From Escherichia phage SD2: a stretch of DNA of 64,000 nucleotides. The notes under the pieces are model-generated. The model did not search any database, had not been told where the DNA came from, and saw only the letters and a program-made list of their open reading frames with translations. Positions 7,291 to 44,467 of this stretch are shown in pieces. The translations under genes and the position numbers were made by a program. Positions within the stretch are counted from its first letter, which is position 1. The number at the start of each line of letters is the position of its first letter. The stretch lies in the sequence record PQ821640; one strand, 5' to 3'.

Positions 7291-7358
7291 TCAATTTCCT
7301 CCATATTCTTTAGTAGATGGTGATACCTCTGTACCACCATCATAACACAAATTAAGTA

Positions 7359-8210: not shown

Positions 8211-8245
8211 CTGTTTCTCCTTCTTATTTAATCTGTATTAAATTA

Positions 8246-8836: not shown

Positions 8837-9029
8837 CTGTAACCCTCTCATTTAAAGTCTCGACACAATTTTTAAAATCTCTAGAGAAACAATACATCTG
8901 TTCTCCGTTCCTGTTGATAGTAATTGTATGGTTATCAACATATGTTGTCAAGATAAAAATCAAACAAAATAACCCTAAAGCAAAACAAATATTTTCAAAC
9001 AGAATCCAAAGAACACGTAAAACCACCAT
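8823..9029 (-). CDS. small hydrophobic protein
   Basis: ORF track 68 aa; predicted TM segment; RBS-like GAGGTGA. Confidence 0.35.
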   Translation of the reverse strand: MVVLRVLWILFENICFALGLFCLIFILTTYVDNHTITINRNGEQMYCFSRDFKNCVETLNERVTDEKH

Positions 9030-9040
9030 CAGATCACCTC

Positions 9041-9061
9041 AATAAAGCCCCCGAAGGGGCT
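9041..9061 (-). terminator. rho-independent terminator after TerC gene
   Basis: GCCCCCGAAGGGGC hairpin followed on minus strand by TTTATT. Confidence 0.6.
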
Positions 9062-9068
9062 TAATGAA

Positions 9069-10046
9069 TTAAGCAACAGCCTGGTCTTCTTTTTCAGGGA
9101 AGATTAAACTTGCAATAACACCCAGTCCCAGAGTACCTAACACAATATACATACTGATCGTCGGATCAATGTGTGCTGGCAGGAAACTCACTTTTGCGTG
9201 CAGAGTTTCTGCAAACGGGTGATACATCAGTTTTACACCCACAAATACCAGGACTACGATAACTGCTTTCTCCAGATGAACCAAATATTTCAGTGCAACA
9301 CTAAGGACAAAGAACAGAGCACGTAGACCTAAAATTGCACACAGCATTGAAGAAAATACAAGCAGAGGTTCTTGTGTCACTGCAATTACTGCTGGAACAG
9401 AGTCTACTGCAAAGATTACGTCAACCATTTCCATTACAAACACACAAACCAATGCAGGAGTTGCTACACGAACACCATTTTTGATTGTGAAGAACTTCTC
9501 ACCATCCATCTGATCAGATACAGGGAACAGCTTACGAACAATGCGAGTAGCCCAGTGTTTAGAGTAATCAACTTCTGCGTCATTATCTCCAGCGAATACC
9601 ATTTTAGCGGCGCAGAAAAGGATGACCGCACCGAAGAAGATATTAACATACCAGCCCAAACTCAACAAGTAAGTACCTACTGCTACAAACACACCTCGGA
9701 AGACAATCGCACCTGCAATACCCCAAAGTAGAATCTTGTGCTGCAAGTGTGTGCTTTTAATACCAAAACTTGCGAATACTGCCACAAATACTACTAAGTT
9801 ATCTACAGAAAGAGATTTCTCCAACACATACCCACTCAAGAACAAGCTCGCAAAATCAGCACCGTGTTGGAAGTATACAAAACCATAGTAGGCTAACGAT
9901 ACCCCAATCCAGAAAATTGACCAGCCAATTGCAGATTTAAATGAAATTTCTTTGTTTTCTCTGTGTCCAAAGAAATCAATACAAATCGACAAGACTAAAA
10001 TACCCACTAAAACAACCACATCAATAATTGGGAAACCCAGTTGCAT
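9069..10046 (-). CDS. terC: TerC-family integral membrane protein
   Basis: 325 aa polytopic membrane protein with EKSLSVDN motif characteristic of TerC family. Confidence 0.75.
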   Translation of the reverse strand: MQLGFPIIDVVVLVGILVLSICIDFFGHRENKEISFKSAIGWSIFWIGVSLAYYGFVYFQHGADFASLFLSGYVLEKSLSVDNLVVFVAVFASFGIKSTHLQHKILLWGIAGAIVFRGVFVAVGTYLLSLGWYVNIFFGAVILFCAAKMVFAGDNDAEVDYSKHWATRIVRKLFPVSDQMDGEKFFTIKNGVRVATPALVCVFVMEMVDVIFAVDSVPAVIAVTQEPLLVFSSMLCAILGLRALFFVLSVALKYLVHLEKAVIVVLVFVGVKLMYHPFAETLHAKVSFLPAHIDPTISMYIVLGTLGLGVIASLIFPEKEDQAVA

Positions 10047-10123
10047 TCTTTTCTCCTCTTTAATGCGGAGGACAATCCTCCGCTCTATGTCGTATACTAT
10101 AAACTGTTTTTAAAGAAAGTCAA

Positions 10124-10372
10124 CTAGTTCAGTTCTGTAATTTTAAGTTTATCTTCTTTGTTAATGATAGGGAAAGCTACAGCATCACCTACATCATCAA
10201 TAAAGCAAACAGCAAGACCACCTTCCACTTTGCTAACCTGACCATTAAAGGCGTGATACGGGGCAGGAACAATATCTCCATCTTCAAGGAGAATAGCCTC
10301 ATAAACCTTACCAACAGTACAATCACGAGTGTTTATAAATTTTTCAAGCACTTCAACATTTACTTTACGCAT
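10124..10372 (-). CDS. hypothetical protein
   Basis: ORF track 82 aa. Confidence 0.45.
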   Translation of the reverse strand: MRKVNVEVLEKFINTRDCTVGKVYEAILLEDGDIVPAPYHAFNGQVSKVEGGLAVCFIDDVGDAVAFPIINKEDKLKITELN

Positions 10373-32915: not shown

Positions 32916-32940
32916 TATTTTGAAAATTTTTATTTTTATA

Positions 32941-32955
32941 AAAAGGGGTGTGGGT
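32941..32955 (+). promoter_or_regulatory. AAAGGGGTGTG motif, copy 1
   Basis: Recurs at 44180 and 44259 at the borders of the cassette array. Confidence 0.3.
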
Positions 32956-33129
32956 TTCATGTACGGAAATTCACCCTCTGAATAATATATTCAGAGTAAA
33001 TATTATTTTGTACTCTGTTAATAAATTATTTAATTTGTTTGTTGGATTATGATATCTGGTTTTTAAAAGGCATACTATCTCTTAACTACTACTTATAACA
33101 GAACAGTAAAATCATTTTTATAAAAAGGA

Positions 33130-33340
33130 CAAAATTATTTAAAGTTTTTACAGATTTTTGGATACAAATTTTGAAAATGAAAAGTTCAAGTTTGGTCAAA
33201 ATTATTTAAAGTTTTTGTATGTATTTCTATCCAGATTTTGAAAATGAAAACTTCAATTTTTTAAAAATTCCCCAGTTTATTTAAAGTTTTTTTACCTTTT
33301 TCCGTAGAAAAATCAAAAATGAAAAGTTCAATTTCGTGTT
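33130..33340 (+). repeat. three tandem ~68-70 bp repeats (ATTTAAAGTTTTT ... ATTTTGAAAATGAAAAGTTCAA)
   Basis: Direct repeat units at about 33130, 33198 and 33266; each contains the inverted repeat TTGAA..TTCAA. Confidence 0.6.
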
Positions 33341-33349
33341 TTTATGGGT

Positions 33350-33470
33350 ATGCGTATGATAATCATTCTCATTTGTAAATGAGAATCATTATCATTTAAT
33401 TATGTAAATGATAAGCATTCTCACTAAGAGAATGAGAATCATTAGCAAATGAGAATTTTTCTCATTTGCA
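33350..33470. promoter_or_regulatory. cluster of at least 4 Fur-box-like palindromes
   Basis: ATGATAATCATTCTCATT, AATGAGAATCATTATCATT, AATGATAAGCATTCTC, AATGAGAATCATTAGCAAATGAGAA versus Fur consensus GATAATGATAATCATTATC. Confidence 0.45.
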
Positions 33471-33479
33471 GAATAACGC

Positions 33480-34100
33480 GCAGGGGCGGTGTTTGTCTCG
33501 CGCTCCCGTGTCCCCTCGCCATACAATAAGAATAGCATAACCAACAACAAAAGCAAGCGATTATTTTTATCTTTACATTTCTTTACAAATTTATTTTAGA
33601 CGAGCTACCGGCGATCAACCTTCCAACCAGTGCCCCTGGTATGTTAGCCCCGCCTTTACGCCGTGGGGGTGGCGCTTCCTCTTCTGTATGTAAAACAGTA
33701 TAAGCCCGATCCCTGGGCTTGTCAAGATTATTTTTTGTTTTCTTGCCAGGATAGGACACCTAACCAAAAATACATGTCGCCCCGTGCCCCTGGCGGGATC
33801 TTGCTTTCCCCGCCGCCACTGCAAGCCCATAAATAACCATTTACGAACGTATCAAAGTGATCTATCTCTTCCACCTTATGATCGCCCAGGTTGAGAACGG
33901 TTTCAACCTTTAAGCCCGTTGCGCTTGCTACCTGGTGCACCGTGCCGCCTTGCCAGCCCAATGAGTGCATGAGATGTAAAGGAGTATTTGTCATGGTATC
34001 GCCCTTTCTTTGATGTGCGCCCTGGTTGGCGCGGTAGAAAGATAATAGCCGTTTCCTTTATAGATAGCAAGCAAAAAAGAAATGAAAAAAGATTAAAAAA
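33480..34100. other. GC-rich compositional island
   Basis: Visibly higher GC than the flanking AT-rich sequence. Confidence 0.5.
33728..33994 (-). CDS. hypothetical protein encoded in the GC-rich island
   Basis: ORF track 88 aa; overlapping alternative frames present. Confidence 0.3.
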   Translation of the reverse strand: MTNTPLHLMHSLGWQGGTVHQVASATGLKVETVLNLGDHKVEEIDHFDTFVNGYLWACSGGGESKIPPGARGDMYFWLGVLSWQENKK

Positions 34101-34104
34101 ATGG

Positions 34105-34166
34105 TTGACGTTCCTCACCTGGTAGCGTAGTATTCATCTTGTCGAGGGGCGGCAATAGTGCCGCTC
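34105..34166 (+). promoter_or_regulatory. cassette 1: promoter (TTGACG-17-TAGTAT) + 5' hairpin GGGCGGCAATAGTGCCGCTC
   Basis: Sigma70-like boxes; hairpin starts ~8 nt after the -10. Confidence 0.6.
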
Positions 34167-34188
34167 ATAACAGAAGAGAGAAATAATC

Positions 34189-34461
34189 ATGGCATCATAT
34201 AGCGCATCAATGATCGTAGCTGGCATCACTGGTAAACCTATGCGCGGTGGCGGATCTTTCGCTAACATCAATATTGATGGACGTTTATCCCTGGACGCAG
34301 CGATCACAGTGGCACGGGAAACGTTTAAAAAAGAATGTAATTTCAATAAACAAGATTATCTCGGTTTCGCTATTGAAAAAACCGCGCGATTTGTGGATTA
34401 TAAAAGCCCGAAAATGATCGACACTACACTAAAAGCGCAAGATGTAGCGTTTTTGCTTTAA
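34189..34461 (+). CDS. hypothetical protein (cassette 1)
   Basis: ORF track 90 aa. Confidence 0.55.
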   Translation: MASYSASMIVAGITGKPMRGGGSFANINIDGRLSLDAAITVARETFKKECNFNKQDYLGFAIEKTARFVDYKSPKMIDTTLKAQDVAFLL

Positions 34462-34464
34462 GTC

Positions 34465-34524
34465 TTGACACTGAAAAATAATTTGGTAATATATACTCCA
34501 TAAGGCGGGAAATGGTTTCCCGCC
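34465..34524 (+). promoter_or_regulatory. cassette 2: promoter TTGACA + hairpin GGCGGGAAATGGTTTCCCGCC
   Basis: Consensus -35, TG-extended -10; canonical hairpin core. Confidence 0.65.
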
Positions 34525-34546
34525 AAAACAAAGAAAGGGTAACACA

Positions 34547-34909
34547 ATGAGCAAGCAAATCAATACTATCATGTTAAACCTGGTATCTTTCCGCGATGAC
34601 GTGAAAAACCTTTCGCGTGATGCAGTGGATGCACGGATCGAAAGCTATCGCACACAGATCGCAACGTTACCGCTGAAACGTGATCAACATGCCGCTAATA
34701 TGATGCTTGATGCTATGATTAAAAAGATGATTCAATGTGATCTTACCCTGGCTTATGAATATGCTGGCGATCTCTTTGTAACATATAGCAAGCCCGTTCC
34801 AGGTATGAGCACCACGGAAGAATTGCATGCCTTAAATCTGCGACAAGATGCATGGGATAACATGCGCCGTGTTATGGTATGGGTAGAAAGCGGTAAAATT
34901 TACGAATAA
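34547..34909 (+). CDS. hypothetical protein (cassette 2)
   Basis: ORF track 120 aa; RBS AAGAAAGGG. Confidence 0.55.
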   Translation: MSKQINTIMLNLVSFRDDVKNLSRDAVDARIESYRTQIATLPLKRDQHAANMMLDAMIKKMIQCDLTLAYEYAGDLFVTYSKPVPGMSTTEELHALNLRQDAWDNMRRVMVWVESGKIYE

Positions 34910-34915
34910 AAACGG

Positions 34916-34969
34916 TTGACATTGCACTAAAACCTGATAAGCTATCTTAAAGCGGGAATTGTTCCCGCT
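34916..34969 (+). promoter_or_regulatory. cassette 3: promoter TTGACA + hairpin AGCGGGAATTGTTCCCGCT
   Basis: Hairpin variant preserves pairing. Confidence 0.55.
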
Positions 34970-34987
34970 TACATAGGATAAAACTTT

Positions 34988-35134
34988 ATGAAACAATATG
35001 TAATGAGTATTCATACCAAAAACGGCGCTACTGTTACGACTCCGGCACGGTTTGCACTTGTAAACCGTTGCAAGAGACTAAAACGAGAGTTAAAAAATAA
35101 CCGTGCAACGGGCTTTAAACGCTGGGGAGGATAA
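34988..35134 (+). CDS. small basic protein (cassette 3, ~48 aa)
   Basis: Manual ORF; stop is followed by GGAGG and the TTG start of the next gene; approximate. Confidence 0.4.
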   Translation: MKQYVMSIHTKNGATVTTPARFALVNRCKRLKRELKNNRATGFKRWGG

Positions 35135-35136
35135 TC

Positions 35137-35397
35137 TTGTTTTTTCTAAAAGTTTTTGATAATGTGATCGCTTTTGAACATGCTACAACGTTCGACCTGG
35201 CGAGATACGCTATCAGGTTTAAAGATAATGTTTATCCCCGTGCTGGCGGCGGTTACACTATTTTTAATCATCGCAACGCGCAACTGACTGATGTAACTAA
35301 TCCAGATCCTGGAGTGTATCGCATAGGCTGGCTACCGTCAAAAGACGCGGCAAGCATGTTTAAGTTATGTAAACTACTAACAGAAGAGGCGAACTAA
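35137..35397 (+). CDS. hypothetical protein (TTG start)
   Basis: ORF track 86 aa; TTG start 6 nt after GGGGAGGA. Confidence 0.5.
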   Translation: MFFLKVFDNVIAFEHATTFDLARYAIRFKDNVYPRAGGGYTIFNHRNAQLTDVTNPDPGVYRIGWLPSKDAASMFKLCKLLTEEAN

Positions 35398-35398
35398 C

Positions 35399-35953
35399 AT
35401 GGGGCGTGAATATGTGATCCAGTCCTGGGTAAAGCATGACGCAAATGATCCGCGCATAATACCAGATGACATGATCGATCACATGGTGGGGTATAGCGGG
35501 GAGCAGATAGGAAATCGAGCGGCAAAGAGCAACGGCAACACCAGAACGAGATCCGTTCGCCCTGGATGGCTGGCAAATGGTAACGCTGACATTGCAAGCG
35601 CCGCAGATCCAAGCGATGACGCTAAAAATAATCCCTTGTATAACATTGATCCGGCTTTTAAGGTGTTGGAAGAGTATCCCGCTAAATTAGCCGCACTAGA
35701 TAAAGCATACGAAGAAAAACGGGTGGCATGGACTGTATACAACACCGCTAAAATGGTGCTAGATGCAAAATTGATTAAAGCCCAGGAGAAGATCAATAAA
35801 CTTGTTACCATAGCGCAAGAGGAAGACCAGGACGACCAGGAGGAAGAGGAAGAAATCATGCCTATCCTGGAAGAGGAAGAGATCCAGCCATACATGCCGA
35901 CGGAAGAGGAAAAAAGACAAGCCTTAAAAAATTATAAAAATTGTATTGTGTAA
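35399..35953 (+). CDS. hypothetical protein with acidic D/E-rich C-terminal region
   Basis: ORF track 184 aa; RBS GAAGAGG. Confidence 0.55.
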   Translation: MGREYVIQSWVKHDANDPRIIPDDMIDHMVGYSGEQIGNRAAKSNGNTRTRSVRPGWLANGNADIASAADPSDDAKNNPLYNIDPAFKVLEEYPAKLAALDKAYEEKRVAWTVYNTAKMVLDAKLIKAQEKINKLVTIAQEEDQDDQEEEEEIMPILEEEEIQPYMPTEEEKRQALKNYKNCIV

Positions 35954-35956
35954 GGC

Positions 35957-36013
35957 TTGACATATGCAAACAAGCCCCGTAATATGTACCACATAGAGCG
36001 GGGCAACGCCCCA
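35957..36013 (+). promoter_or_regulatory. cassette 4a: promoter TTGACA-17-TAATAT + hairpin GAGCGGGGCAACGCCCC, no ORF directly after
   Basis: Followed ~20 nt later by a second promoter; possible short leader or small RNA. Confidence 0.5.
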
Positions 36014-36034
36014 TAAGGTGAAATAAAAAATCAC

Positions 36035-36062
36035 TTGACACCTGAAATCAGTAAGCTATAAT
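36035..36062 (+). promoter_or_regulatory. cassette 4b: consensus promoter TTGACA-16-TATAAT
   Basis: Exact -35 and -10 hexamers. Confidence 0.65.
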
Positions 36063-36099
36063 GCTTATATAAATTAAAGCGTTACTAAGGAATAAAATC

Positions 36100-36465
36100 A
36101 TGGCTAAAAATATTAATGTTTCTGCTTATGCTACCCTGGCTAATACTGCTAAAATTGAACTATCCAGCATTGAAGCGGTACATATTAGCGCCCGTCGCTG
36201 GTTTCAAAAGTCTTATGGTAATACTTATTTCTCTTTGATGGTTGACGTTGAGATCGGCGGTAAACTGATTGAAGTCGTTAACGTTCCGTTTCATTATGGT
36301 TATGGTGATCATTTTGATACCGTTGCCCTGGAAGAGTTTAGCAAGGTTATCAACCTGGAAGGTAAAGAGTTTTCAAATTATGCTTATCTTTCCCGTTTTT
36401 GCCGTGATAATGGGATCGCTGTATACAGTCATGCAAGCGATGTTAAACGTAAAAAAGATTTATAA
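36100..36465 (+). CDS. hypothetical protein
   Basis: ORF track 121 aa. Confidence 0.55.
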   Translation: MAKNINVSAYATLANTAKIELSSIEAVHISARRWFQKSYGNTYFSLMVDVEIGGKLIEVVNVPFHYGYGDHFDTVALEEFSKVINLEGKEFSNYAYLSRFCRDNGIAVYSHASDVKRKKDL

Positions 36466-36469
36466 AAAG

Positions 36470-36535
36470 CATTGACAGCACGAATAAAAAGAGTAAAATG
36501 TTTCATATCAGGACGGGGGAACGGTTTCCCCTCCT
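36470..36535 (+). promoter_or_regulatory. cassette 5: promoter TTGACA + hairpin GGACGGGGGAACGGTTTCCCCTCC
   Basis: Hairpin variant with altered stem that still pairs. Confidence 0.55.
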
Positions 36536-36554
36536 AACAAAGAGAGAAATAAAA

Positions 36555-36737
36555 ATGGCTAAATGCACTATTTGTAAGAAAGAAATAGTATTAGTTCCAA
36601 GCGCCCGTGAACGTGCCGCTAAGTTCGGTGGCAAACCGTCAGACTATACGAAAATGTTTACTACCCATGCAGCTTGTCAAGTAGCAAAACGTTCACAAGA
36701 AAGCGTAGAATTAATGCGTAAACTTTCCAAAAAATAA
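36555..36737 (+). CDS. small protein MAKCTICKKE... (cassette 5)
   Basis: Start at Met20 of track ORF, after hairpin and RBS AAGAGAGAAA. Confidence 0.5.
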   Translation: MAKCTICKKEIVLVPSARERAAKFGGKPSDYTKMFTTHAACQVAKRSQESVELMRKLSKK

Positions 36738-36741
36738 GTAT

Positions 36742-36803
36742 TGACAAAGTATTTTATTACTATATAATGGTTTACATCGAGAGCGGGAATAGTTCCCGCC
36801 TCA
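36742..36803 (+). promoter_or_regulatory. cassette 6: promoter TTGACA-16-TATAAT + hairpin GAGCGGGAATAGTTCCCGCCTC
   Basis: Consensus boxes. Confidence 0.65.
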
Positions 36804-36823
36804 CTGAAAAAGAGATTAACATC

Positions 36824-37063
36824 ATGGCTAAATCTAAAATGTACAACGGTCACAAAAATAAAACTCATTGGAATGTAAGCCTTTGGATTAATAACGATCC
36901 AGGTTTTTATAATATGGCAAAAGAATTTATAGCCGTGAACAACAATAAAGATAACGCCGCGCGTGAAATGATGTCATTACTTAACGAAATGGGCCAAAAT
37001 ACTACGCCAGATGGCTATAAATTCAGTAAAACCAGTATCCGCGCCGCTATGGTAGGAATGTAA
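36824..37063 (+). CDS. hypothetical protein (cassette 6)
   Basis: Start at MAKSK, Met20 of track ORF. Confidence 0.5.
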   Translation: MAKSKMYNGHKNKTHWNVSLWINNDPGFYNMAKEFIAVNNNKDNAAREMMSLLNEMGQNTTPDGYKFSKTSIRAAMVGM

Positions 37064-37072
37064 TAAAAGCAG

Positions 37073-37132
37073 TTGACAACGTTTTTTAATCTGGTATAGT
37101 TTATCACATAGGGCGGGAAATGGTTTCCCGCC
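37073..37132 (+). promoter_or_regulatory. cassette 7: promoter TTGACA + TGgTATAGT extended -10 + hairpin GGGCGGGAAATGGTTTCCCGCC
   Basis: Canonical hairpin. Confidence 0.65.
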
Positions 37133-37154
37133 AAATGAAAGAAAGGTTATCATT

Positions 37155-37382
37155 ATGGCTATCGTTATTGTTCGCGTATCCGGCACGGTTGGAATCTCCC
37201 AGGTAGTAGCAGTTATCACCGAGAAGAAAGGGGATGATCTTCACTCCTCCTTGAATAGCTGGGCGGTCGCTAATTTCGGGCAATGGTCGAGCGTTGAGTA
37301 TATCGAATCCTACCAGGTGCCAACGATTAGCCTAACCGATCTGAATGTTGATCGCTTATTGTGCCTGGATGGATTAAACTAA
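37155..37382 (+). CDS. hypothetical protein (cassette 7)
   Basis: ORF track 75 aa. Confidence 0.55.
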   Translation: MAIVIVRVSGTVGISQVVAVITEKKGDDLHSSLNSWAVANFGQWSSVEYIESYQVPTISLTDLNVDRLLCLDGLN

Positions 37383-37390
37383 AAATAATC

Positions 37391-37448
37391 TTGACAAGAT
37401 AACTAAAATCAGTAAAATGTAATGCATAGGGCGGCAATAGTGCCGCTC
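37391..37448 (+). promoter_or_regulatory. cassette 8: promoter TTGACA + hairpin GGGCGGCAATAGTGCCGCTC
   Basis: Hairpin identical to cassette 1. Confidence 0.6.
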
Positions 37449-37469
37449 ATAGTAAGAGAGATTATCAAA

Positions 37470-37685
37470 ATGGCTAATATCCGCACACTGTTAAAAAATG
37501 CAAGTCAAGTTTTATTTTCAGATGACGAGTATTTCAACAAAGACATTACAGGCGTGAAAAATTTAAAAGACGTGAAGGATGTTATCGGTATCCGTGGATC
37601 TTTACGTAAAGGTGACATATACGGTAACAAGGTGCAATATAAACTATCAAAAGATTATGATTTTACTTTGACAATTATTTCATAA
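37470..37685 (+). CDS. hypothetical protein (cassette 8)
   Basis: Start at MANIRT, Met17 of track ORF. Confidence 0.5.
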   Translation: MANIRTLLKNASQVLFSDDEYFNKDITGVKNLKDVKDVIGIRGSLRKGDIYGNKVQYKLSKDYDFTLTIIS

Positions 37686-37691
37686 AACTAC

Positions 37692-37752
37692 TTGCAAACC
37701 TGGTAAAATAAAGTAAACTATATTCATTAAGGCGGTGGAATAGCCCACCGCC
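37692..37752 (+). promoter_or_regulatory. cassette 9: promoter-like TTGCAA + hairpin GGCGGTGGAATAGCCCACCGCC
   Basis: Stem differs from canonical copy on both arms (GGTGG / CCACC) and still pairs. Confidence 0.5.
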
Positions 37753-37775
37753 TAACAAAGAGAAGAGGAAACATC

Positions 37776-37946
37776 ATGATCACTTTCGCTACCCGTGAAG
37801 CCGCTCGCAACGTTGCACGTAAAGTTAACGCCGCCAACCTGGGCGCTACGCTTAAAGCCCCGGTGAAAGATGAATCAGGAAAATGGATCTTTCCTGGTCT
37901 GCGTCACGCTGATAAGCTGGGGACATTAACGTTAAAAAATAAATAA
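37776..37946 (+). CDS. small protein ~56 aa (cassette 9)
   Basis: Manual ORF, RBS AAGAGGAAA; approximate. Confidence 0.4.
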   Translation: MITFATREAARNVARKVNAANLGATLKAPVKDESGKWIFPGLRHADKLGTLTLKNK

Positions 37947-37953
37947 TATCCGC

Positions 37954-38020
37954 TTGACAGTAGCATCATTTATAAGTAAAGTAACAACAACGGCGGGAAA
38001 ATTATTGGTTATATATTGCA
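37954..38020 (+). promoter_or_regulatory. cassette 10: promoter TTGACA + degenerate hairpin remnant (GGCGGGAAAATTATTGG)
   Basis: Hairpin 3' arm lost. Confidence 0.4.
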
Positions 38021-38076
38021 AGCATGATCATAACTTTGGCAAAATATCATAACGTAGCGTAATCGAGAGGAAAAAC

Positions 38077-38214
38077 ATGAACGCATCACAGCAGATCGAA
38101 AAATTCAACCGCAGCAAGGCGCGTAAAAATTGGAACGAAGAGATCACCAAGAAAGGCGATAAGCGGAACAAAACAAAAAGAGATCGCAGCACAAAAAGAC
38201 ACTGGAACGAATAA
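38077..38214 (+). CDS. very basic 45-aa protein (K/R-rich)
   Basis: Manual ORF MNASQQIEKFNRSKARKNW...; RBS GAGAGGAAAAA; followed by terminator; approximate. Confidence 0.4.
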   Translation: MNASQQIEKFNRSKARKNWNEEITKKGDKRNKTKRDRSTKRHWNE

Positions 38215-38216
38215 CA

Positions 38217-38245
38217 AAAAGGGCGCAATAAGCGCCCTTTTAGCT
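38217..38245 (+). terminator. rho-independent terminator
   Basis: AAAAGGGCGCAATAAGCGCCCTTTT. Confidence 0.7.
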
Positions 38246-38332
38246 TATATAGAGGCTTGTTACCCATAGGCAATGGTAACGCCAGGGCAAGCCTATAAAT
38301 CAACGTTAGACGGCTTTACAGGAGCTTTAAAA

Positions 38333-38515
38333 ATGAGATTAGAAGAAATAAGCAAGGCACTAGCCCAGGGGCAAAGGTTATGCGCCCGATATCGTGATCA
38401 ATATGGCTTTATAACTAGCGGCGTGATCCTGGGGATTGAAGGCAATAAAATTTTTATTGACACGTTGAAAAACGTTGTATATAGTGACAATATAATCTCA
38501 ATAAAACATATATGA
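38333..38515 (+). CDS. hypothetical protein
   Basis: Start at MRLEEISK after AGGAG RBS, within track ORF 38273-38515. Confidence 0.45.
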   Translation: MRLEEISKALAQGQRLCARYRDQYGFITSGVILGIEGNKIFIDTLKNVVYSDNIISIKHI

Positions 38516-38523
38516 GGCAAGAA

Positions 38524-38925
38524 ATGAAAAAATTATTGATCGCTGGTTTAATCTCTTTTGGCATGGTTGGAACATCTAGCGCGGCGATATCCTCCACAGT
38601 AGCAGAATTAAGCGCCGTTGATGCAATGGAAAACGTCATGATCATTAATAACGCGATCCCCGATGAAATCATGGAGGATTCACACATGATCGCTTATGGT
38701 GCTGTTACACAATTAACGGCAAAAATAGATAAATCTATTGTTAATGGCTTAAATGAAGATGTACCATGTGAAATTATTACCAGTGTGCTAACGACTCAAA
38801 ATTTTACGCCGTGGCTAAAAAGTATTCAAAAGGTACACAGCACCGCCGCAGATCGTAGCAATGAAAAACTAGTGTCAGCACTTGCAACGTATACCCTAGC
38901 AAAATGTACCGAGATAAAAGGTTGA
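38524..38925 (+). CDS. secreted protein with signal peptide
   Basis: MKKLLIAGLISFGMVGTSSAA signal peptide; RBS GAGG. Confidence 0.5.
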   Translation: MKKLLIAGLISFGMVGTSSAAISSTVAELSAVDAMENVMIINNAIPDEIMEDSHMIAYGAVTQLTAKIDKSIVNGLNEDVPCEIITSVLTTQNFTPWLKSIQKVHSTAADRSNEKLVSALATYTLAKCTEIKG

Positions 38926-38949
38926 CAATATAGAAAGCACGTTATAAGA
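38922..38949 (+). promoter_or_regulatory. promoter TTGACA-16-TATAAG (no hairpin)
   Basis: Sigma70-like boxes upstream of 38971 ORF. Confidence 0.5.
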
Positions 38950-38970
38950 TACACAACAAAGGAGAACCAC

Positions 38971-39273
38971 ATGAACGGCATAGCTAAAACGTTTTTTCTT
39001 TTTTCTGGTGTAAATGATCCATCAATAAAAGTCGATAGTGTAAAAGAAAACAATACTATCACCGCTAAATTGTTTCAAGATGAAACAAATAACGTGCTAA
39101 TCATTAATCTTAAAGAAATAACGAAAGGTTATTATACTATTGCTTACCATGCGATCTATCATGCGGGTACTAGTGAGGAAGTGCAAACAAGCAACAACGA
39201 AAGCGCGGCGCTACCTGGTGATCTGGTGCTGGGCGTTATCAGTTTAATTGTCAATGATTTTTTTAAGGAGTAA
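38971..39273 (+). CDS. hypothetical protein
   Basis: ORF track 100 aa; RBS AAGGAGAA. Confidence 0.55.
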   Translation: MNGIAKTFFLFSGVNDPSIKVDSVKENNTITAKLFQDETNNVLIINLKEITKGYYTIAYHAIYHAGTSEEVQTSNNESAALPGDLVLGVISLIVNDFFKE

Positions 39274-39277
39274 AACC

Positions 39278-39373
39278 ATGCCCTATTTACATTTATTTTT
39301 CGGTATCTTATTGACAGGATCTTTTTTCTTCTGTATGCTTGTTTCTATTGTAAACCACGTTTTAAGACATTAA
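39278..39373 (+). CDS. tiny hydrophobic peptide (~31 aa)
   Basis: Manual ORF MPYLHLFFGILLTG...; approximate. Confidence 0.25.
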   Translation: MPYLHLFFGILLTGSFFFCMLVSIVNHVLRH

Positions 39374-39382
39374 GGAAACAGC

Positions 39383-39502
39383 ATGAAAATTATTCCCGTA
39401 CAGTATAGCGTAATAAATCCAGCATATGAGGAAGGAAGGAAAACAAGCATGGCTTTATGTTGTATTACTACTATAGCCATGTTATTATATATTGTGTTTT
39501 AA
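39383..39502 (+). CDS. tiny hydrophobic peptide (~39 aa)
   Basis: Manual ORF MKIIPVQYSV...CCITTIAMLLYIVF; approximate. Confidence 0.25.
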   Translation: MKIIPVQYSVINPAYEEGRKTSMALCCITTIAMLLYIVF

Positions 39503-39531
39503 TAGGTTTTATAGTTGTACGCTTTAAAGGC

Positions 39532-39560
39532 TTGACAATTTTTTGTTATGCTTTAAAATA
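39532..39560 (+). promoter_or_regulatory. promoter TTGACA + TAAAAT
   Basis: Followed by mini-hairpin CGGCAAAGGCCG. Confidence 0.45.
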
Positions 39561-39602
39561 TATCTTGAAAACGGCAAAGGCCGCAAACAAAAGGGTAAAA
39601 TT

Positions 39603-39926
39603 ATGAAATCTGTGATCGGTGTTTATTTGGATAACTCTGATTTTTTCTATCATCGTGCGCGTTTCCTTGATGCGATTGAAATGATAGAATCAGGCTTTAA
39701 AGAGTATCGCCTTGCACATGATGACCTGGAAGCATTACAGGGCAATAGTGTTTTTACATTGCAAGCTAAAGCACTATGTAAAAGCCGGATCGACATTGCG
39801 AGCAAAAAGATAGAACGCGGCATGTCCTGGTTACGCACCGCAGAAATTAACATGGGGCAATGGTACGGCGAAAACTTAGAAAATAAACTCACTTTTGTAA
39901 ATGTAGAAAATCTTAAAGATTATTGA
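39603..39926 (+). CDS. hypothetical protein
   Basis: Start at MKSVIG, Met21 of track ORF. Confidence 0.5.
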   Translation: MKSVIGVYLDNSDFFYHRARFLDAIEMIESGFKEYRLAHDDLEALQGNSVFTLQAKALCKSRIDIASKKIERGMSWLRTAEINMGQWYGENLENKLTFVNVENLKDY

Positions 39927-39989
39927 TTGACAGCACGCCTGATAAGGAGTATATTGTATCTCATAGAGCGGGGAAATGGTTTCCCCGCC
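39927..39989 (+). promoter_or_regulatory. cassette 11: promoter TTGACA + hairpin AGCGGGGAAATGGTTTCCCCGCC
   Basis: Hairpin variant with one extra G-C pair. Confidence 0.6.
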
Positions 39990-40008
39990 TTAACAGAAGA
40001 GATAAGAT

Positions 40009-40293
40009 ATGAAAATCACAAAAGCACTTTTCAACTATGCAGCACGTCGCGGATTATGCTTATCCGTTGAAAATTTAGGAAAAGAAGATTTTTTGTGCTT
40101 TTGGGAGCTTGAGAATGATAATGAGTGGATCTTCTCTTATTCTATCTGCAAAGATCAAAATGGTTGCTTGTTAACCTGGCACGGTAATATCTATTTGCCG
40201 GAAGAAATAAAACAAGAATTACCAGGCACGATCATGACTGAGAAACAGCTTAAGGAAGTGATCAATTTTGTAAGGCAAAACATTAAAAAATAA
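40009..40293 (+). CDS. hypothetical protein (cassette 11)
   Basis: ORF track 94 aa. Confidence 0.55.
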   Translation: MKITKALFNYAARRGLCLSVENLGKEDFLCFWELENDNEWIFSYSICKDQNGCLLTWHGNIYLPEEIKQELPGTIMTEKQLKEVINFVRQNIKK

Positions 40294-40294
40294 T

Positions 40295-40355
40295 TTGACA
40301 GTAGGCAAACAACGTAGTAAAGTTTACCACATAGGGCGGGAAATGGTTTCCCGCC
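40295..40355 (+). promoter_or_regulatory. cassette 12: promoter TTGACA + hairpin GGGCGGGAAATGGTTTCCCGCC
   Basis: Canonical hairpin. Confidence 0.65.
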
Positions 40356-40373
40356 AGAATAGAGAGAACTAAA

Positions 40374-40478
40374 ATGATTATTCTTACCATGATGTGCGCG
40401 GCGGTTATTATTCCTTTGATAACGCTTATTGTTTCTGAGATCGATGATCTTCTCTTTGAAAGAAGTTTAAAAAAGTAA
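40374..40478 (+). CDS. tiny membrane peptide (~34 aa, cassette 12)
   Basis: Manual ORF MIILTMMCAAVIIPLITLIVSE...; approximate. Confidence 0.35.
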   Translation: MIILTMMCAAVIIPLITLIVSEIDDLLFERSLKK

Positions 40479-40540
40479 TTGACAACGGCTAATAAGCTGA
40501 TAATATGTATCACATAGGGCGGGGCAATAAGGCAACGCCC
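40479..40540 (+). promoter_or_regulatory. cassette 13: promoter TTGACA-TAATAT + hairpin GGGCGGGGCAATAAGGCAACGCCC
   Basis: Hairpin variant with enlarged loop. Confidence 0.55.
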
Positions 40541-40558
40541 ACTAATGAGGGTAGCATC

Positions 40559-40663
40559 ATGTTAGAGAAAATTTTCACGGTTGTAATAGTGGGCCTGGCG
40601 TTATCGGTTGGAGTGATTGCAACTATGGCTAACATGATCCTATCTTCCCACGGTATCGGCTAA
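40559..40663 (+). CDS. tiny membrane peptide (~34 aa, cassette 13)
   Basis: Manual ORF MLEKIFTVVIVGLALSVGVIATMANMI...; approximate. Confidence 0.35.
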   Translation: MLEKIFTVVIVGLALSVGVIATMANMILSSHGIG

Positions 40664-40677
40664 AAGAGAAACACAAC

Positions 40678-41064
40678 ATGAAAACAGAAATCATTATTGA
40701 AATCATCAACGGTTATAAAGAAGCCTTTATTTTTGCTGAATCAGCAAGGGATCATGAAGGTAATTTTATTGATAACTTAGACGATTATGATTTTTCAGAT
40801 CAAGCCCATCAACGGATCATTAATGACGTAGCGGCTTATTGTGATGCCAATGATGCTGCTATCTCTGAGGCAATGAGCGACGGCGCAACAGCAAACCAGA
40901 TCGGGAATGATTTACATTTTACCCGTAACGGTCACGGCGTAGGTTTTTGGGATCGCCCTGAAATATACACTACTAACACCGCCAACCGCCTAACAAATGC
41001 AGCTAGATTAATGCCATCGGTGCATGCTTACATTGGTGAAGATAATTTGATTTATATTGAATAA
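40678..41064 (+). CDS. hypothetical acidic protein
   Basis: ORF track 128 aa. Confidence 0.55.
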   Translation: MKTEIIIEIINGYKEAFIFAESARDHEGNFIDNLDDYDFSDQAHQRIINDVAAYCDANDAAISEAMSDGATANQIGNDLHFTRNGHGVGFWDRPEIYTTNTANRLTNAARLMPSVHAYIGEDNLIYIE

Positions 41065-41070
41065 AAAGTG

Positions 41071-41129
41071 TTGACACCGATCCCCAATATGGTATTATTT
41101 ACCACGTAGGCGGGAAATGGTTTCCCGCC
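41071..41129 (+). promoter_or_regulatory. cassette 14: promoter TTGACA + hairpin GGCGGGAAATGGTTTCCCGCC
   Basis: Canonical hairpin. Confidence 0.65.
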
Positions 41130-41153
41130 AGGTAATCAAAAAAGGTAAACATT

Positions 41154-41543
41154 ATGCGCAACCTGATTTCTGTTTCTAACGTTGAAAAATTTCAATCCTT
41201 GCAGGGTATCATTAACAACGTAGCGCCTTTTTTAGTCAATGGCTTGATTGCAAAGATGAAAAATAAACATCATGCGGCATGGTCTGCTTATTGCTTTGAT
41301 AATGATGAAAAAGCGGCTGAAATGATGTTAAATATGCTTTTGGATAGTGTAGAATCATCTTTACCGGAAAACATCGCAGAAGAGATCACCTATCGTTATA
41401 ATATGGCGATCACTTACCAGGAGGTTGCGCAATTCAACATGATGGATGATGACGAACAACAGGATCAAGAAATGTTCTGGGAGTATGCAGATCGTCAATC
41501 GGCTTTTGATGAAAAGTTAGCGATGTATTATAACGAATATTAA
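41154..41543 (+). CDS. hypothetical protein (cassette 14)
   Basis: ORF track 129 aa. Confidence 0.55.
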   Translation: MRNLISVSNVEKFQSLQGIINNVAPFLVNGLIAKMKNKHHAAWSAYCFDNDEKAAEMMLNMLLDSVESSLPENIAEEITYRYNMAITYQEVAQFNMMDDDEQQDQEMFWEYADRQSAFDEKLAMYYNEY

Positions 41544-41557
41544 TACACGGTAAAAGA

Positions 41558-41585
41558 AAGGGGCGCACTAAGCGCCCTTTTTTGT
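41558..41585 (+). terminator. rho-independent terminator
   Basis: AAAGGGGCGCACTAAGCGCCCTTTTTTTG. Confidence 0.7.
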
Positions 41586-41861
41586 ATTCTTTTTTCACGA
41601 TGGAAACAACACGTAAAGAATAGGCGTAAAGGTGGCGTAAAACAGCCTAAAACCGATTATAACCGCTTAAACAAGGTAGGGATGATTAATCACCTTACCA
41701 GGATGAAAAAGCCGTTATAAAGCTATCTAGAGCGTTTAAAGCACATAGGAAATAATTTGCTTTTTATCTTGCCTTTTATTCTGCTTTTGATTATTATTAT
41801 GGAACGGGCGGCACCTGGGAGCAGGGGAAGATAATCACCGGACGATCTTATTATATATTGA

Positions 41862-41880
41862 TAGCTTCCACCTATCAAAC
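41862..41880. promoter_or_regulatory. inverted repeat TGATAGCTTCCACCTATCA
   Basis: 6-bp arms TGATAG/CTATCA; second copy at 42753. Confidence 0.4.
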
Positions 41881-41928
41881 AACAAAACATTAAAGAAATA
41901 AACTATCAAATCTTTACAATCTCACCTA

Positions 41929-41987
41929 TTGACACCGGATCGCCCTTATACTAAGATGTATCACGTAGGCGGGAAGTGGTTTCCCGC
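41929..41987 (+). promoter_or_regulatory. cassette 15: promoter TTGACA-TATACT + hairpin GGCGGGAAGTGGTTTCCCGC
   Basis: Hairpin variant. Confidence 0.6.
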
Positions 41988-42006
41988 TCAATATAGGAAT
42001 CATATC

Positions 42007-42237
42007 ATGATCGAACAAATTAAACGCGCTGAGGCTATTAACGGCAATGTGATCTACTCTGTCAGCAATAACGAAAAAGGCGTACCTTATGCAGCGGTGA
42101 TAGTACAGCCTGACGGTGATTATTGGTTTACTGTATACGGATCTTATTCTTTTGGGCGTCCAGTACATGATAAAATTTTGAAAGTAGCTAATCCCACTGG
42201 GAAGAATATCACAGTAGAAAAATTCTTTGAAAAATAA
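42007..42237 (+). CDS. hypothetical protein (cassette 15)
   Basis: Start at MIEQIK, Met27 of track ORF. Confidence 0.5.
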   Translation: MIEQIKRAEAINGNVIYSVSNNEKGVPYAAVIVQPDGDYWFTVYGSYSFGRPVHDKILKVANPTGKNITVEKFFEK

Positions 42238-42312
42238 CTTGCTTTATAGCCTCTGTTAATTTATAGTTATCGTGTAGGGCAAGCAATTTTAAACGGTAAA
42301 CGAGGAATCTCC

Positions 42313-42696
42313 ATGAGCAATATCATCAACCTGGCGGCTACTGTAAACGGTAAAGATTTTAACGGCGCTGTAGATCGTGATCCTATGTGGTACTTGTCAG
42401 TATTTAAAGGCGATCTGGTTGAAGTTAGAACAACCGAAGGGTATAGCGATGATTATAAATGCGAGATCCATTTACATAACTGGTACACGGGGAAAACTTA
42501 TGCGCTAAACCATGCGTTTATCGGGAAAATTGAATATCGCGAGATGATCGACGAAGAAACGGGGCAAGATTTTAGCGATTATGTTTATATTCGTTCAGAA
42601 ACATTAGCCGAACGTTTGATCGAGAAAATGAAAGCAAAAAATAAAATTAATTTAGCTCATTGGCTTGATATAACAAACGATCCGGCTTATAAGTAA
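42313..42696 (+). CDS. hypothetical protein
   Basis: ORF track 127 aa; RBS ACGAGGAA. Confidence 0.55.
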   Translation: MSNIINLAATVNGKDFNGAVDRDPMWYLSVFKGDLVEVRTTEGYSDDYKCEIHLHNWYTGKTYALNHAFIGKIEYREMIDEETGQDFSDYVYIRSETLAERLIEKMKAKNKINLAHWLDITNDPAYK

Positions 42697-42711
42697 ATAA
42701 CATTTCACACC

Positions 42712-42740
42712 AGGGCGCACAAAGCGCCCTTTCTTTTTTA
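42712..42740 (+). terminator. rho-independent terminator
   Basis: AGGGCGCACAAAGCGCCCTTTCTTTTTT. Confidence 0.7.
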
Positions 42741-42752
42741 CCTAAATAAAGA

Positions 42753-42772
42753 TGATAGCTTTTACCTATCAA
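42753..42772. promoter_or_regulatory. inverted repeat TGATAGCTTTTACCTATCA
   Basis: Second copy of TGATAG-N-CTATCA site, again just downstream of a terminator. Confidence 0.4.
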
Positions 42773-42939
42773 AAACGTTCACCGAAAAAAGTGAATAGAT
42801 CGCGGTATCGAGCTAATCAAGGAGCAGATGAACAACCATACCATGAAGATCATAAGGCGCTTACAACGTGTTTTAGACCGCTTATTTTTAATTTCTTCAT
42901 GTAACTATCTGGCAAAAACAGCCTTTTTCTTGTCTTTCC

Positions 42940-43020
42940 TCTTAAATGATAATCATTCTTATTTATAGCTGATTATTTATGCAATAAACTGAATAATGTA
43001 ATAATGATAATCATTCTTAA
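42940..43020. promoter_or_regulatory. two Fur-box-like sites (AAATGATAATCATTCTTAT; ATAATGATAATCATTCTTAA)
   Basis: 14-16 of 16-18 positions match Fur consensus. Confidence 0.45.
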
Positions 43021-43844
43021 CTTAAGACCATCTAACCTATAAAATAATAAGTTATCTAACTAAATTAAAACTAATTATCTCACCTTTATTTATAACTTAC
43101 TGTTACTATCTCATTGATAACCTTATATTAAACAACAATAACTAATATAAATTATTACTAAGCTAAATATAATCTATCTAACCTTTAAAACTATAATTAT
43201 AATCTATCGAATTGTTGCACAAAGTAACTATTAAATTGTTAGTAACATTACTAAATAATTAATATCCTATCTATTTATGATCTAATCTTTACCTTCCTAT
43301 TTATTACCTAAATAATCATTTCATACCGTAATCATTTCATACAATAATTATAACAAGAAATATAATTAACAAGCGTATCATTAGCAGCCTATGCCGGACA
43401 CATAGGCGGCTAATAATAACGCAACTACACACCCCACATAATAACCATCACCGATAGTTATTATTTGTGCTTATGTAGCTTGCAACAACTGCAAGCGCAA
43501 CAATATACATGGTATATTGTATTCCCTTACATTGTTGCGGTGCGTTATTATTAGCTAATGTTTGGAACATTGGCTATAATATAAGCTATCCAATAATAAA
43601 CATAGTGAATAATAACCCTGATGATCATAATGCGCCACCTTCCAGGGGGCGCTATGTGAACACAAAGAAATCTTTCTTGTCAAGAAAAATATTACCATTA
43701 TTGCGCAAAATTATTTACATCTGAATAGATGGTTTTTCATACTATTGCCCCATATAGCCTATCATTTGTTGAGCCTACTTTCTTAAAAGCGCAATAAATT
43801 AGAATTATCTTGATTTTTAGGGCGTTTTATAGTATAGAAAATAT

Positions 43845-43865
43845 GCAAATGATAATCATTATCAG
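43845..43865. promoter_or_regulatory. Fur-box-like site GCAAATGATAATCATTATCAG
   Basis: 16/17 match to GATAATGATAATCATTATC. Confidence 0.5.
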
Positions 43866-44029
43866 TTATCTTCCACGGGTGGCACTATTTCACGCAGGAT
43901 CATTTCATTTGGCAAGGTGTATATAGATGTTTAGACTTGCCAAGCCATTGATTTGCTTAGAATTTATCTGTTTTGTTGTGAGTAATGCCTTTCTTGCTCA
44001 GAAAATAATCAAAAGTCTTATAAGTCATT

Positions 44030-44062
44030 GAATGATAATGCAAATGATAATAATTCTCATTG
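44030..44062. promoter_or_regulatory. Fur-box-like tandem site GAATGATAATGCAAATGATAATAATTCTCATTG
   Basis: Overlapping GATAAT hexamer repeats. Confidence 0.4.
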
Positions 44063-44179
44063 ATATTTGAGGGGGACGGTCAGCAGAAATCGGGGGGCGC
44101 TGAAAATCGCGTTAAGCACCTCTCGCAAGCGAGCAGTATTTTGCGGCAAGTTATTGATATTATTGACTTTACGCTTATG

Positions 44180-44290
44180 AAAAGGGGGTGTGTCGAAATA
44201 AATCGGGTATACCGGAAAATTTTTGTGGCATAGATATTTATTTGTCTATATTATGTACAAAGGGGTGTGTTAAAAATATTAGGTATATAT
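44180..44290 (+). promoter_or_regulatory. two copies of AAAGGGGTGTG-N-AAATA-N-T(C/T)(G/A)GGTATA motif
   Basis: 44180-44210 and 44259-44290; upstream of the 44468 operon. Confidence 0.35.
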
Positions 44291-44467
44291 AGAATAATTG
44301 ATAGGGAAATCCTATACTAAATCCTTCATTATTGCAGCGGGTGAAAGACAGAATCGAAGATGCAAATAATGCTTGCATTGGATAGAAATGTCTGTATAGT
44401 GGTTTGCATACCGCGCACGACGCGTTTCCATTTTCAATAAAATGTTAGCATTATGGGGAGGTAGAAA

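Follow-up and report, generated by a model that had tools for sequence, protein, structure and literature searches.

Clusters of Fur-box-like sites in the terminal noncoding DNA of a phi92-like Escherichia phage

Binding sites of the host iron regulator Fur (Fur boxes) are textbook elements, familiar as operators that precede the genes they control, and their motif is conserved between bacterial phyla. Multicopy Fur boxes derepress Fur-regulated genes, as exploited in the Fur titration assay, and datA is a corresponding titration locus for DnaA. On phage DNA, the stx1 promoter of a temperate phage contains a Fur box. A Fur box is also located upstream of sitABCD in lambdoid phages (PMC6969025), and in the cryptic prophages of Escherichia coli K-12, nohA/nohB are preceded by Fur boxes while ydfK/ynaE have them at their translational starts (PMC2189734, Table 4). 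Here, we describe Fur-box-like sites in a stretch of 64,000 nucleotides (the window) of Escherichia phage SD2 (PQ821640), where about 11 boxes per genome would lie in noncoding DNA at the genome ends and at the border of the early gene block. Searches of the literature, with subscription-only papers outside their range, returned no account of Fur boxes as noncoding arrays in virulent phages, in Stephanstirmvirinae, or in the injection stop signal (iss) of phage T5. This type of array, Fur boxes in the terminal noncoding DNA of virulent phages, is without a prior description that we could find.

The sites resemble the chromosomal E. coli operators of ryhB, gpmA, entC, fepA-fes and fhuF in being inverted repeats of 19–21 bp, in reaching the same or higher scores with a position weight matrix (PWM), and in being accompanied by sites shifted by 6 bp. 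Among the native operators, the high-affinity fhuF site is protected by Fur at ~50 nM (PMC2189734). The layout of the phage sites is different. The phage boxes are discrete, 17–29 bp apart and grouped in arrays of up to five, whereas the chromosomal operators consist of overlapping hexamers over one promoter; moreover, the phage boxes lie off recognisable strong promoters, in the direct terminal repeat (DTR) and at module borders of a virulent phage. Temperate phages and prophages likewise carry host Fur sites, but theirs are single operators before particular genes, mostly accessory cargo, while the arrays described here are noncoding, belong to a strictly virulent phage and have no obvious target gene. 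The presence of many high-affinity sites on a high-copy replicon is reminiscent of titration loci; the box positions are conserved, however, which points to a local role.

The two noncoding regions concerned match approximately 130–140 phage records with 90–99% identity, the best being Escherichia phages W22, EC.P2, alia, PHB05 and phi92, and the window belongs to a phi92-like virulent myovirus of ~147 kb (Justusliebigvirus, Stephanstirmvirinae). E. coli K-12 is the recorded host of the Justusliebigvirus phages JohannJBalmer, EmilieFrey and PaulScherrer. A symmetrised 21-bp PWM that owes nothing to phage sequence was trained on an alignment of 17 of the strongest Fur sites of E. coli K-12, with sequences taken from NC_000913.3. 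Their coordinates are those listed by Chen et al. 2007 (Table 4 of PMC2189734), and footprints or gel shifts exist for 14 of them. The base composition of the window (37.3% G+C) was used as the scoring background. In leave-one-out scoring, the native operators reached 11.8–23.4 bits. A scan of the whole window gave nine sites of 16.1–25.4 bits, whereas 200 dinucleotide-preserving shuffles contained a mean of 0.105 and a maximum of 2 sites of at least 16 bits. Five of the nine are located in 32916–33728 and four in 42905–44467, where shuffles of the same kind made from each region itself predict 0.002 and 0.008 sites, respectively. AT-richness therefore does not explain the boxes, because the shuffle expectation is far below the observed count, and the excess is real and statistically overwhelming. 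Applied as a specificity control to the ent-fep region of E. coli (17 kb), the matrix matched nothing outside the known operator regions. An earlier note on this DNA had proposed at least eight Fur-box-like sites clustered in two noncoding regions and had called for a comparison with a shuffled background. That comparison disposes of an account by composition only. The six sequences quoted in the note were all found, 0–4 bases from where it had placed them, and the sites number nine, all of them in the two regions and with scores equal to or above those of native operators.

The sites were compared with the two usual forms of the Fur box, an inverted repeat of 19 bp (GATAATGATAATCATTATC) and a 7-1-7 core (TGATAATNATTATCA). 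Relative to the 19-mer, seven of the nine sites have 2–4 mismatches, and those at 33445 and 42942 have six and five, respectively. The window boxes agree with the consensus of the 17 native K-12 sites, AAATGATAATCATTATCATTT, and often have G/C at the fourth position on each side of the centre (TGAGAAT...ATTCTCA). The consensus sequences of ArgR, TyrR and Zur were rejected because of their half-site spacing. Secondary sites shifted by 6 bp stand beside four main boxes, at 43841 (14.2 bits), 42996 (12.6 bits), 44036 (9.4 bits) and 33400 (8.5 bits); such overlapping shifted sites are a signature of Fur clusters (PMC2189734). By sequence criteria, the window sites are members of the Fur-box family, and it is highly probable that host Fur would bind these predicted boxes (Table 1). 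The best-scoring position after the nine has 15.9 bits (21234–21254, within a minus-strand open reading frame of 937 amino acids) and is probably a chance match; it is followed by positions of 14.2 and 12.6 bits. A consensus DnaA box, TTATCCACA, is located on the minus strand at 21222–21230 in the same open reading frame, 4 bp from this Fur-like site, and the pairing is probably a coincidence. In the sister phage alia, a PWM scan of the other 92 kb gave no site of at least 16 bits.

Table 1 Predicted Fur boxes and associated features of the window (positions are those of the window; scores are from the 21-bp PWM).
Feature	Position	Strand	Remarks
Predicted Fur box A1, GTATGATAATCATTCTCATTT	33354..33374		21.4 bits; position kept in all five aligned lineages
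Predicted Fur box A2, AAATGAGAATCATTATCATTT	33377..33397		25.4 bits, above all 17 native sites; in all lineages
Predicted Fur box A3	33406..33426		18.6 bits; one of the two middle boxes
Predicted Fur box A4	33430..33450		16.1 bits; Justusliebigvirus genomes only
Predicted Fur box A5	33447..33467		19.9 bits; in all lineages; adjoins the highly conserved noncoding block
Conserved noncoding block, candidate transcript of ~210 nt	33468..33690	-	Mean pairwise identity 0.82 in four lineages
Inward sigma-70 promoter, TTGACA-17-TATACT	33697..33725	-	11/12 match; array A is ~230 bp downstream
Terminal early cassette block (phi92 gp225–gp248)	34189..42696	+	Small genes, the majority each preceded by a near-consensus sigma-70 promoter
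Intrinsic terminator at the end of the cassettes	42712..42730	+	AGGGCGCACAAAGCGCCCT followed by a T run
Predicted Fur box B1	42944..42964		22.5 bits; 214 bp past the cassette-closing terminator
Predicted Fur box B2	43002..43022		17.2 bits, with shifted site 42996 (12.6 bits)
Direct terminal repeat (DTR), 343 bp	43772..44114		Match to the annotated phi92 DTR
Predicted Fur box B3	43847..43867		23.3 bits, with shifted site 43841; within the DTR, 75 bp from its left edge
Predicted Fur box B4	44042..44062		23.6 bits; within the DTR, 52 bp from its right edge

The position of the boxes relative to the genome termini was derived from phi92, whose annotation (FR775895.2) places DTR-L at 1–343 and DTR-R at 148270–148612 with identical copies (343/343). 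The corresponding segment of the window, 43772–44114, is identical to the phi92 DTR at 329 of 343 positions, and seven independent GenBank records (phi92, PHB05, VEcB, W22, PD114, UAB_1 and PD06) start or end exactly at window position 43772. As this segment is the DTR, the window spans the junction of the right and left genome ends, and B3 and B4, being within the DTR, are present at both ends of the virion DNA. Their phi92 counterparts are at 76 and 148345 (B3) and at 271 and 148540 (B4), the copy at 148540 being 72 bp from the right physical end. The virion DNA thus has ~11 strong boxes (2 × 2 in the DTR copies, two past the terminator and five in the array upstream of the cassettes, designated array A), and in phi92 a distance of 11.5–11.6 kb, or 7.8% of the genome length, separates the five-box array from the right end. 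Going inward from the right end, the DTR with B4 and B3 is followed by a structured element, B2 and B1, the terminator, the outward early cassettes, a divergent promoter region, the inward gene gp224, the inward sigma-70 promoter, the ~210-bp block and the five-box array. The description of the boxes as flanking the cassette array, given in the earlier note, is correct as far as it goes; it misses that one region includes the DTR and that the other is the inner border of the terminal early block. In a blastn comparison of the two noncoding regions with each other, the Fur boxes were the sole shared sequence. Box B4 is embedded in a ~45-bp run of NATWAT-like hexamers.

The published DTR of BME3 is 342 bp as determined by PhageTerm (PMC12210895). 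The feature annotated as DTR-L in the BME3 record (PP239276.1, 146957–147298) is 73 bp off the repeat present at the record ends; this shift puts the apparent repeat start exactly at a Fur box and looks like an annotation slip, and the phi92 coordinates were therefore used for the DTR. Mapping of the termini gained nothing from the phiWec187 record, whose ends are arbitrary.

The two syntenic places also carry arrays in alia, a 153-kb contig of IMG/VR, Phapecoctavirus ukendt and Klebsiella phage 05F01, with the flanking NADAR protein being 58%, 57% and 61% identical to that of the window in the latter three, respectively. The four lineages of the Stephanstirmvirinae that were sampled thus share the arrangement. 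In the alignment of the first region, the positions of A1, A2 and A5 are fixed, and the middle boxes are gained or lost as whole units with their scores retained. Across four lineages, the identity of A1, A2 and A5 is 0.82 versus 0.31 for the spacers between boxes, the latter value being based on 13 columns only. In the second region, a box is found at the place of B1 in the distant relatives L020 and ukendt (20.1 bits), and B2 is degenerate in both. Because the boxes are conserved despite whole-box turnover and diverged spacers, the motif is kept by selection and not by recent common descent alone. No boxes were found in the 30 kb around the NADAR gene of the Vequintavirinae KPP-1 and SalP219, a result of little weight since the gene context differs there. 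Judged from these patterns in the sequences, the boxes are very likely selected, high-affinity operators for host Fe2+-Fur that have been built into the terminal architecture of the phi92-like phage.

To what use such operators might be put was examined from their surroundings. The cassette genes (named after the phi92 annotation) are served by approximately 20 plus-strand sigma-70 promoters at 34.4–42.0 kb that match the consensus at 10–12 of 12 positions, and promoter-like sites number 63 against an expectation of 41.8 ± 5.7. No box lies on any of these near-consensus early promoters or on any promoter with a match of 10/12 or better, and the suggestion of the earlier note that Fur gives iron-responsive control of early transcription is accordingly unsupported. 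The promoter-like matches that do overlap boxes are 9/12 only (33366–33395 on the plus strand; 33385–33356, 43885–43858 and 44060–44032 on the minus strand). They are generated by the GATAAT-like content of the boxes themselves and are not conserved in L020 and ukendt.

These matches nevertheless bear on the possibility that the clusters are classical operators, repressing overlapping weak promoters so that a few phage transcripts are made only at low iron; the candidates would be short noncoding RNAs that start in or next to the DTR, or units read leftward or rightward within the two regions. Boxes overlap four 9/12 matches, and a conserved TTGATT is found 31 bp upstream of B3 and is followed by a conserved block. 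Overlap with a promoter is the rule for Fur clusters in E. coli, where ryhB provides an example of a small RNA under Fur repression (PMC2189734). We consider this account rather unlikely, as the roughly 20 strong early promoters are free of boxes, the overlapping matches stem from the box sequence and are lost in L020 and ukendt, and arrays of 5–20 boxes far exceed the needs of an operator. The neighbouring genes also showed no link to iron: Pfam and PHROGs searches with ten flanking proteins gave no iron-related or DNA-binding match, the products being NADAR, CapR/T5orf172 endonuclease-like, Gp30.8-like and unknown proteins. Rfam searches (gathering thresholds for the whole window and E-value mode for both noncoding regions) and ARAGORN returned nothing relevant.

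We tentatively favour, at somewhat less than even confidence, a role of the Fur clusters as a nucleoprotein boundary or roadblock rather than as a classical promoter operator. In iron-replete cells, Fe2+-Fur would occupy the box clusters and keep the terminal early block apart from the DTR on one side and from the convergent genes further in on the other. As the phage DNA replicates, or under iron scarcity, Fur occupancy would drop and the boundary would open. A boundary role is suggested because the boxes follow the outward terminator and the last inward unit, sit in the DTR and avoid strong promoters. Fur is abundant, at approximately 5,000–10,000 monomers per cell, and oligomerises along DNA. 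Since ~11 boxes in each of hundreds of genomes approach the Fur pool, occupancy should fall late in infection; by the same reckoning, we infer that one genome is too few to titrate Fur and that hundreds are enough.

Several points weigh against a boundary. A roadblock role for Fur appears to have no direct precedent that could be cited, and an iron-dependent boundary would offer no obvious selective rationale. The palindromes contain GATAAT hexamers, so weak Fur-repressed promoters are possible (the 9/12 matches at 33366, 43885 and 44060), and 83% of the Fur clusters of E. coli overlap promoter-like sites (PMC2189734). The minus-strand transcript that would run into array A is a prediction, and either end of the DNA of phi92-like phages may enter the cell first.

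The same arithmetic of sites and copies could also serve a decoy, in which the multiplying phage DNA titrates Fur and thereby derepresses the host regulon (iron uptake and the RyhB iron-sparing response), with iron for phage enzymes such as class Ia ribonucleotide reductase as the benefit. The ~11 near-consensus boxes per genome, a few hundred copies of which would equal the Fur pool given above, the arrays in other viral contigs with up to 20 positions of at least 13 bits (L062, see below), and the NrdA and NrdB proteins encoded by the phage would all suit a decoy. A sponge, however, needs neither termini nor module borders, yet the box positions are conserved, and its effect would come late in infection. 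In addition, T5 carries boxes although its protein A1 is annotated in the degradation of host DNA and the shutoff of host expression; this shutoff would leave no host regulon to derepress and therefore weakens the decoy. The decoy, which the earlier note had also suggested, is quantitatively plausible but on balance seems distinctly unlikely.

The boxes in T5 (NC_005859) offer a comparison. Three Fur boxes, at 9551 (17.2 bits), 9655 (25.4 bits) and 9690 (21.0 bits), are located within the annotated iss (9140–10149), which is untranslated repeat region 3 of the T5 terminal repeat, and two further half-boxes are found there in the repeated unit TTTTTAAATGAGAATCATT. The box at 9655 is the exact 21-mer of box A2 of the window. 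The T5 boxes stop 38 bp short of the major nick (9748), adjoin the calculated shear point (~9618 in AY587007 numbering), and are downstream of the terminator (9275–9296) of the inward operon T5.011–017. An extra box of 18.2 bits lies inside dmp, 230 bp from the genome end. The iss-region cluster was present in all five T5-like genomes sampled (T5 and four others), and an end-proximal box in two of the four others. Davison catalogued the palindromes of the T5 iss and proposed paired DnaA boxes in inverted repeats, with no mention of Fur (10.1101/866236).

In both the phi92-like phages and T5, early genes transcribed by the host polymerase form a block at the genome end, and a repeat-rich noncoding region marks its inner border. 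The box cluster is at 7.8% from the end in phi92 (from the right end, which may not be the entering one) and at 7.8–8.0% in T5; in both, it comes after the last inward early unit, and a box is close to the physical end. T5 has further features, namely a 10.2-kb terminal repeat, paired DnaA boxes, the A1/A2 proteins, site-specific nicks and nine DRD repeats. The DnaA box TTWTNCACA had no match at 32.9–34.2 kb or 42.7–44.5 kb of the window. When 18 T5 proteins from the first 12.5 kb, including all those of the terminal repeat (pre-early proteins), were used as tblastn queries, neither the window nor the rest of alia nor ukendt yielded a homologue of any of them, A1 and A2 included. Because the DnaA box pairs and A1/A2 are absent, array A was not classed as a T5-type stop signal. 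The motif is common to these unrelated phages and no T5 pre-early homologue was found in the Justusliebigvirus and Phapecoctavirus DNA searched, so the shared factor is taken to be host Fur. The lone match of the T5 proteins was the pre-early protein T5.007 in Klebsiella phage 05F01 (L026:19322–19543, 48% over 82 amino acids), in the early-cassette region and with no counterpart in the window.

The correspondence with T5 raises the question of whether the array of Fur boxes forms the conserved core of a stop signal of the T5 type. At such a signal, DNA entry, or entry driven by RNA polymerase, would pause once the terminal 8% is inside, until early proteins act. Array A is 7.8% from the right end of phi92, the T5 boxes at 7.8–8.0% are in the iss, and in both groups the cluster follows the last inward early unit; in addition, arrays are about four times over a rough uniform estimate within 3.6 kb of the end in the 34 listed IMG/VR contigs of at least 30 kb (see below). 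For phi92-like phages, though, there is no report of a two-step entry, and the entering end may be either one; A1/A2 homologues, and DnaA boxes in both regions, are missing; a cytoplasmic protein that halts entry has no worked-out mechanism; and the agreement in percentage may be a coincidence just as the contig-end enrichment may be an assembly artefact. We regard this account as improbable. The chance is similarly small that host Fur-box clusters would be a shared, new component delimiting the first-entering DNA in phages with a DTR, with a two-step entry of phi92-like DNA. If it were true, Fur at ~8% would contribute to the arrest of entry, or of polymerase-driven entry and inward transcription, until early functions act, and infection would be tied to the iron state of the host. 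If Fur is truly recruited by the T5 boxes, the first-step transfer of T5 would also become accessible to simple experiments.

The occurrence of the motif in T5 is relevant to a further alternative, that the palindromes are sites of a phage-encoded protein (an initiator, a terminase accessory protein or a repressor) in an origin-like or packaging element and that their likeness to Fur boxes is incidental or mimicry. Such a protein might account for five palindromes spaced by 17–29 bp beside three direct repeats of ~70 bp, since spaced palindromes with direct repeats recall iteron-type origins, and for two boxes in the DTR, where the terminase must act. However, the 21-bp consensus is identical to that of host Fur, with nine sites scoring at or above the native ones, and an independent origin of this is very unlikely. 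The motif is found in unrelated phages without a shared candidate binding protein, no Fur-family gene is among the annotations of the sister genomes, and the T5 origins have been reported near the genome centre, elsewhere than the iss (10.1101/866236). We judge this explanation very improbable. The earlier note had offered a phage regulator as its alternative to Fur, and that option is weakened, though not removed, by the presence of the motif in T5-like phages and in a relative of Microcystis phage Mic1 together with the failure to find a homologue of the DNA-binding T5 protein A2.

To gauge how widespread such arrays are, IMG/VR was scanned for two near-perfect boxes no more than 34 bp apart. 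At least 120 stretches of viral contigs of 21–65% G+C were found, where chance at uniform base composition is estimated to give far below one; some of these loci may include prophage or host DNA. Among the matches listed, there were 111 distinct PWM clusters, 43 with at least three strong boxes; the richest cluster had 13 distinct strong boxes, and the centre-to-centre spacing had peaks at 23–24, 29 and 34–35 bp. L062 alone has 20 PWM positions of at least 13 bits. Examples of regular arrays are L062:10758–11323, L104:6647–6937, L041:5779–5907 and L100:10733–10949, with periods of 29, 38 and 89 bp. The members identified among the matches listed included a relative of Microcystis phage Mic1 and T5-like phages; one arrayed contig (L088) had no relative in the phage collection. 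Again among the matches listed, 22% of the arrays were in the outer tenth of the contig (Kolmogorov–Smirnov p = 0.002), and the array was no more than 3.6 kb from an end in 15 of the 34 contigs of at least 30 kb, approximately four times a rough uniform estimate. This enrichment at contig ends is modest, and repeats that break assemblies could be its source. The location of the boxes and their recurrence in T5 and many viral contigs make them of wider interest than the earlier note had supposed. If Fur is truly recruited, they would represent a general route by which phages read or exploit the iron state of the host.

The noncoding surroundings of array A are themselves conserved. The block at 33468–33690 has its identity of 0.82 although the adjacent NADAR protein is just 57–61% identical, and it contains an internal hairpin with a compensatory change (CCAG/CTGG to CCTGG/CCAGG). 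The inward promoter is retained in Klebsiella phage 05F01 as TTGACA-18-TATAAT, with the spacer hairpin altered and the T tail lost. The predicted minus-strand RNA (33470–33692) folded no better than shuffled sequences (z = 0.51), had no Rfam match and showed no clear intrinsic terminator ahead of the Fur array. From its conservation and promoter, the minus strand of 33468–33725 is a candidate conserved small RNA.

Immediately outside the array, at 33114–33334, there are three direct repeats of ~70 bp with start-to-start distances of 67 and 75 bp. Each of them contains TATTTAAAGTTT without mismatch and has a tail resembling GAAAATGAAAAGTTCAA. A TATTTAAA(G/C)TTT motif is retained in ukendt, L018 and the Klebsiella phage, and its exact matches in the window are found only in these repeats. 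As a genome-wide promoter motif, TATTTAAAGTTT was rejected: five matches were found against 4.1 expected, and the three exact ones were all in the repeats.

The structured element mentioned above occupies 43387–43557, between B2 and B3 and ~215 bp before the DTR. It is a conserved multi-hairpin element with a closing stem GCTAATAATAACGCA / TGCGTTATTATTAGC and at least three inner hairpins. All of its stems are kept in the distant relatives L020 and ukendt by compensation (ACGCA/TGCGT to AGCCA/TGGCT, GCCTATG/CATAGGC to GCTACG/CGTAGC, and ATAACCATC.. to ATAACTATC..). The alifold energy is −52 kcal/mol on the plus strand and −65 kcal/mol on the minus strand. The element had no Rfam match and could be a new noncoding RNA or a DNA structure for packaging or replication. 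Beyond the DTR, 44340–44400 comprises the last ~50 bp of a gene family, and many close relatives have insertions at this place. At L020:1658–2762, in a distant relative, three tandem paralogues of this family (~120–126 amino acids, PHROG 2510) are located between B4 and the first left-end gene.

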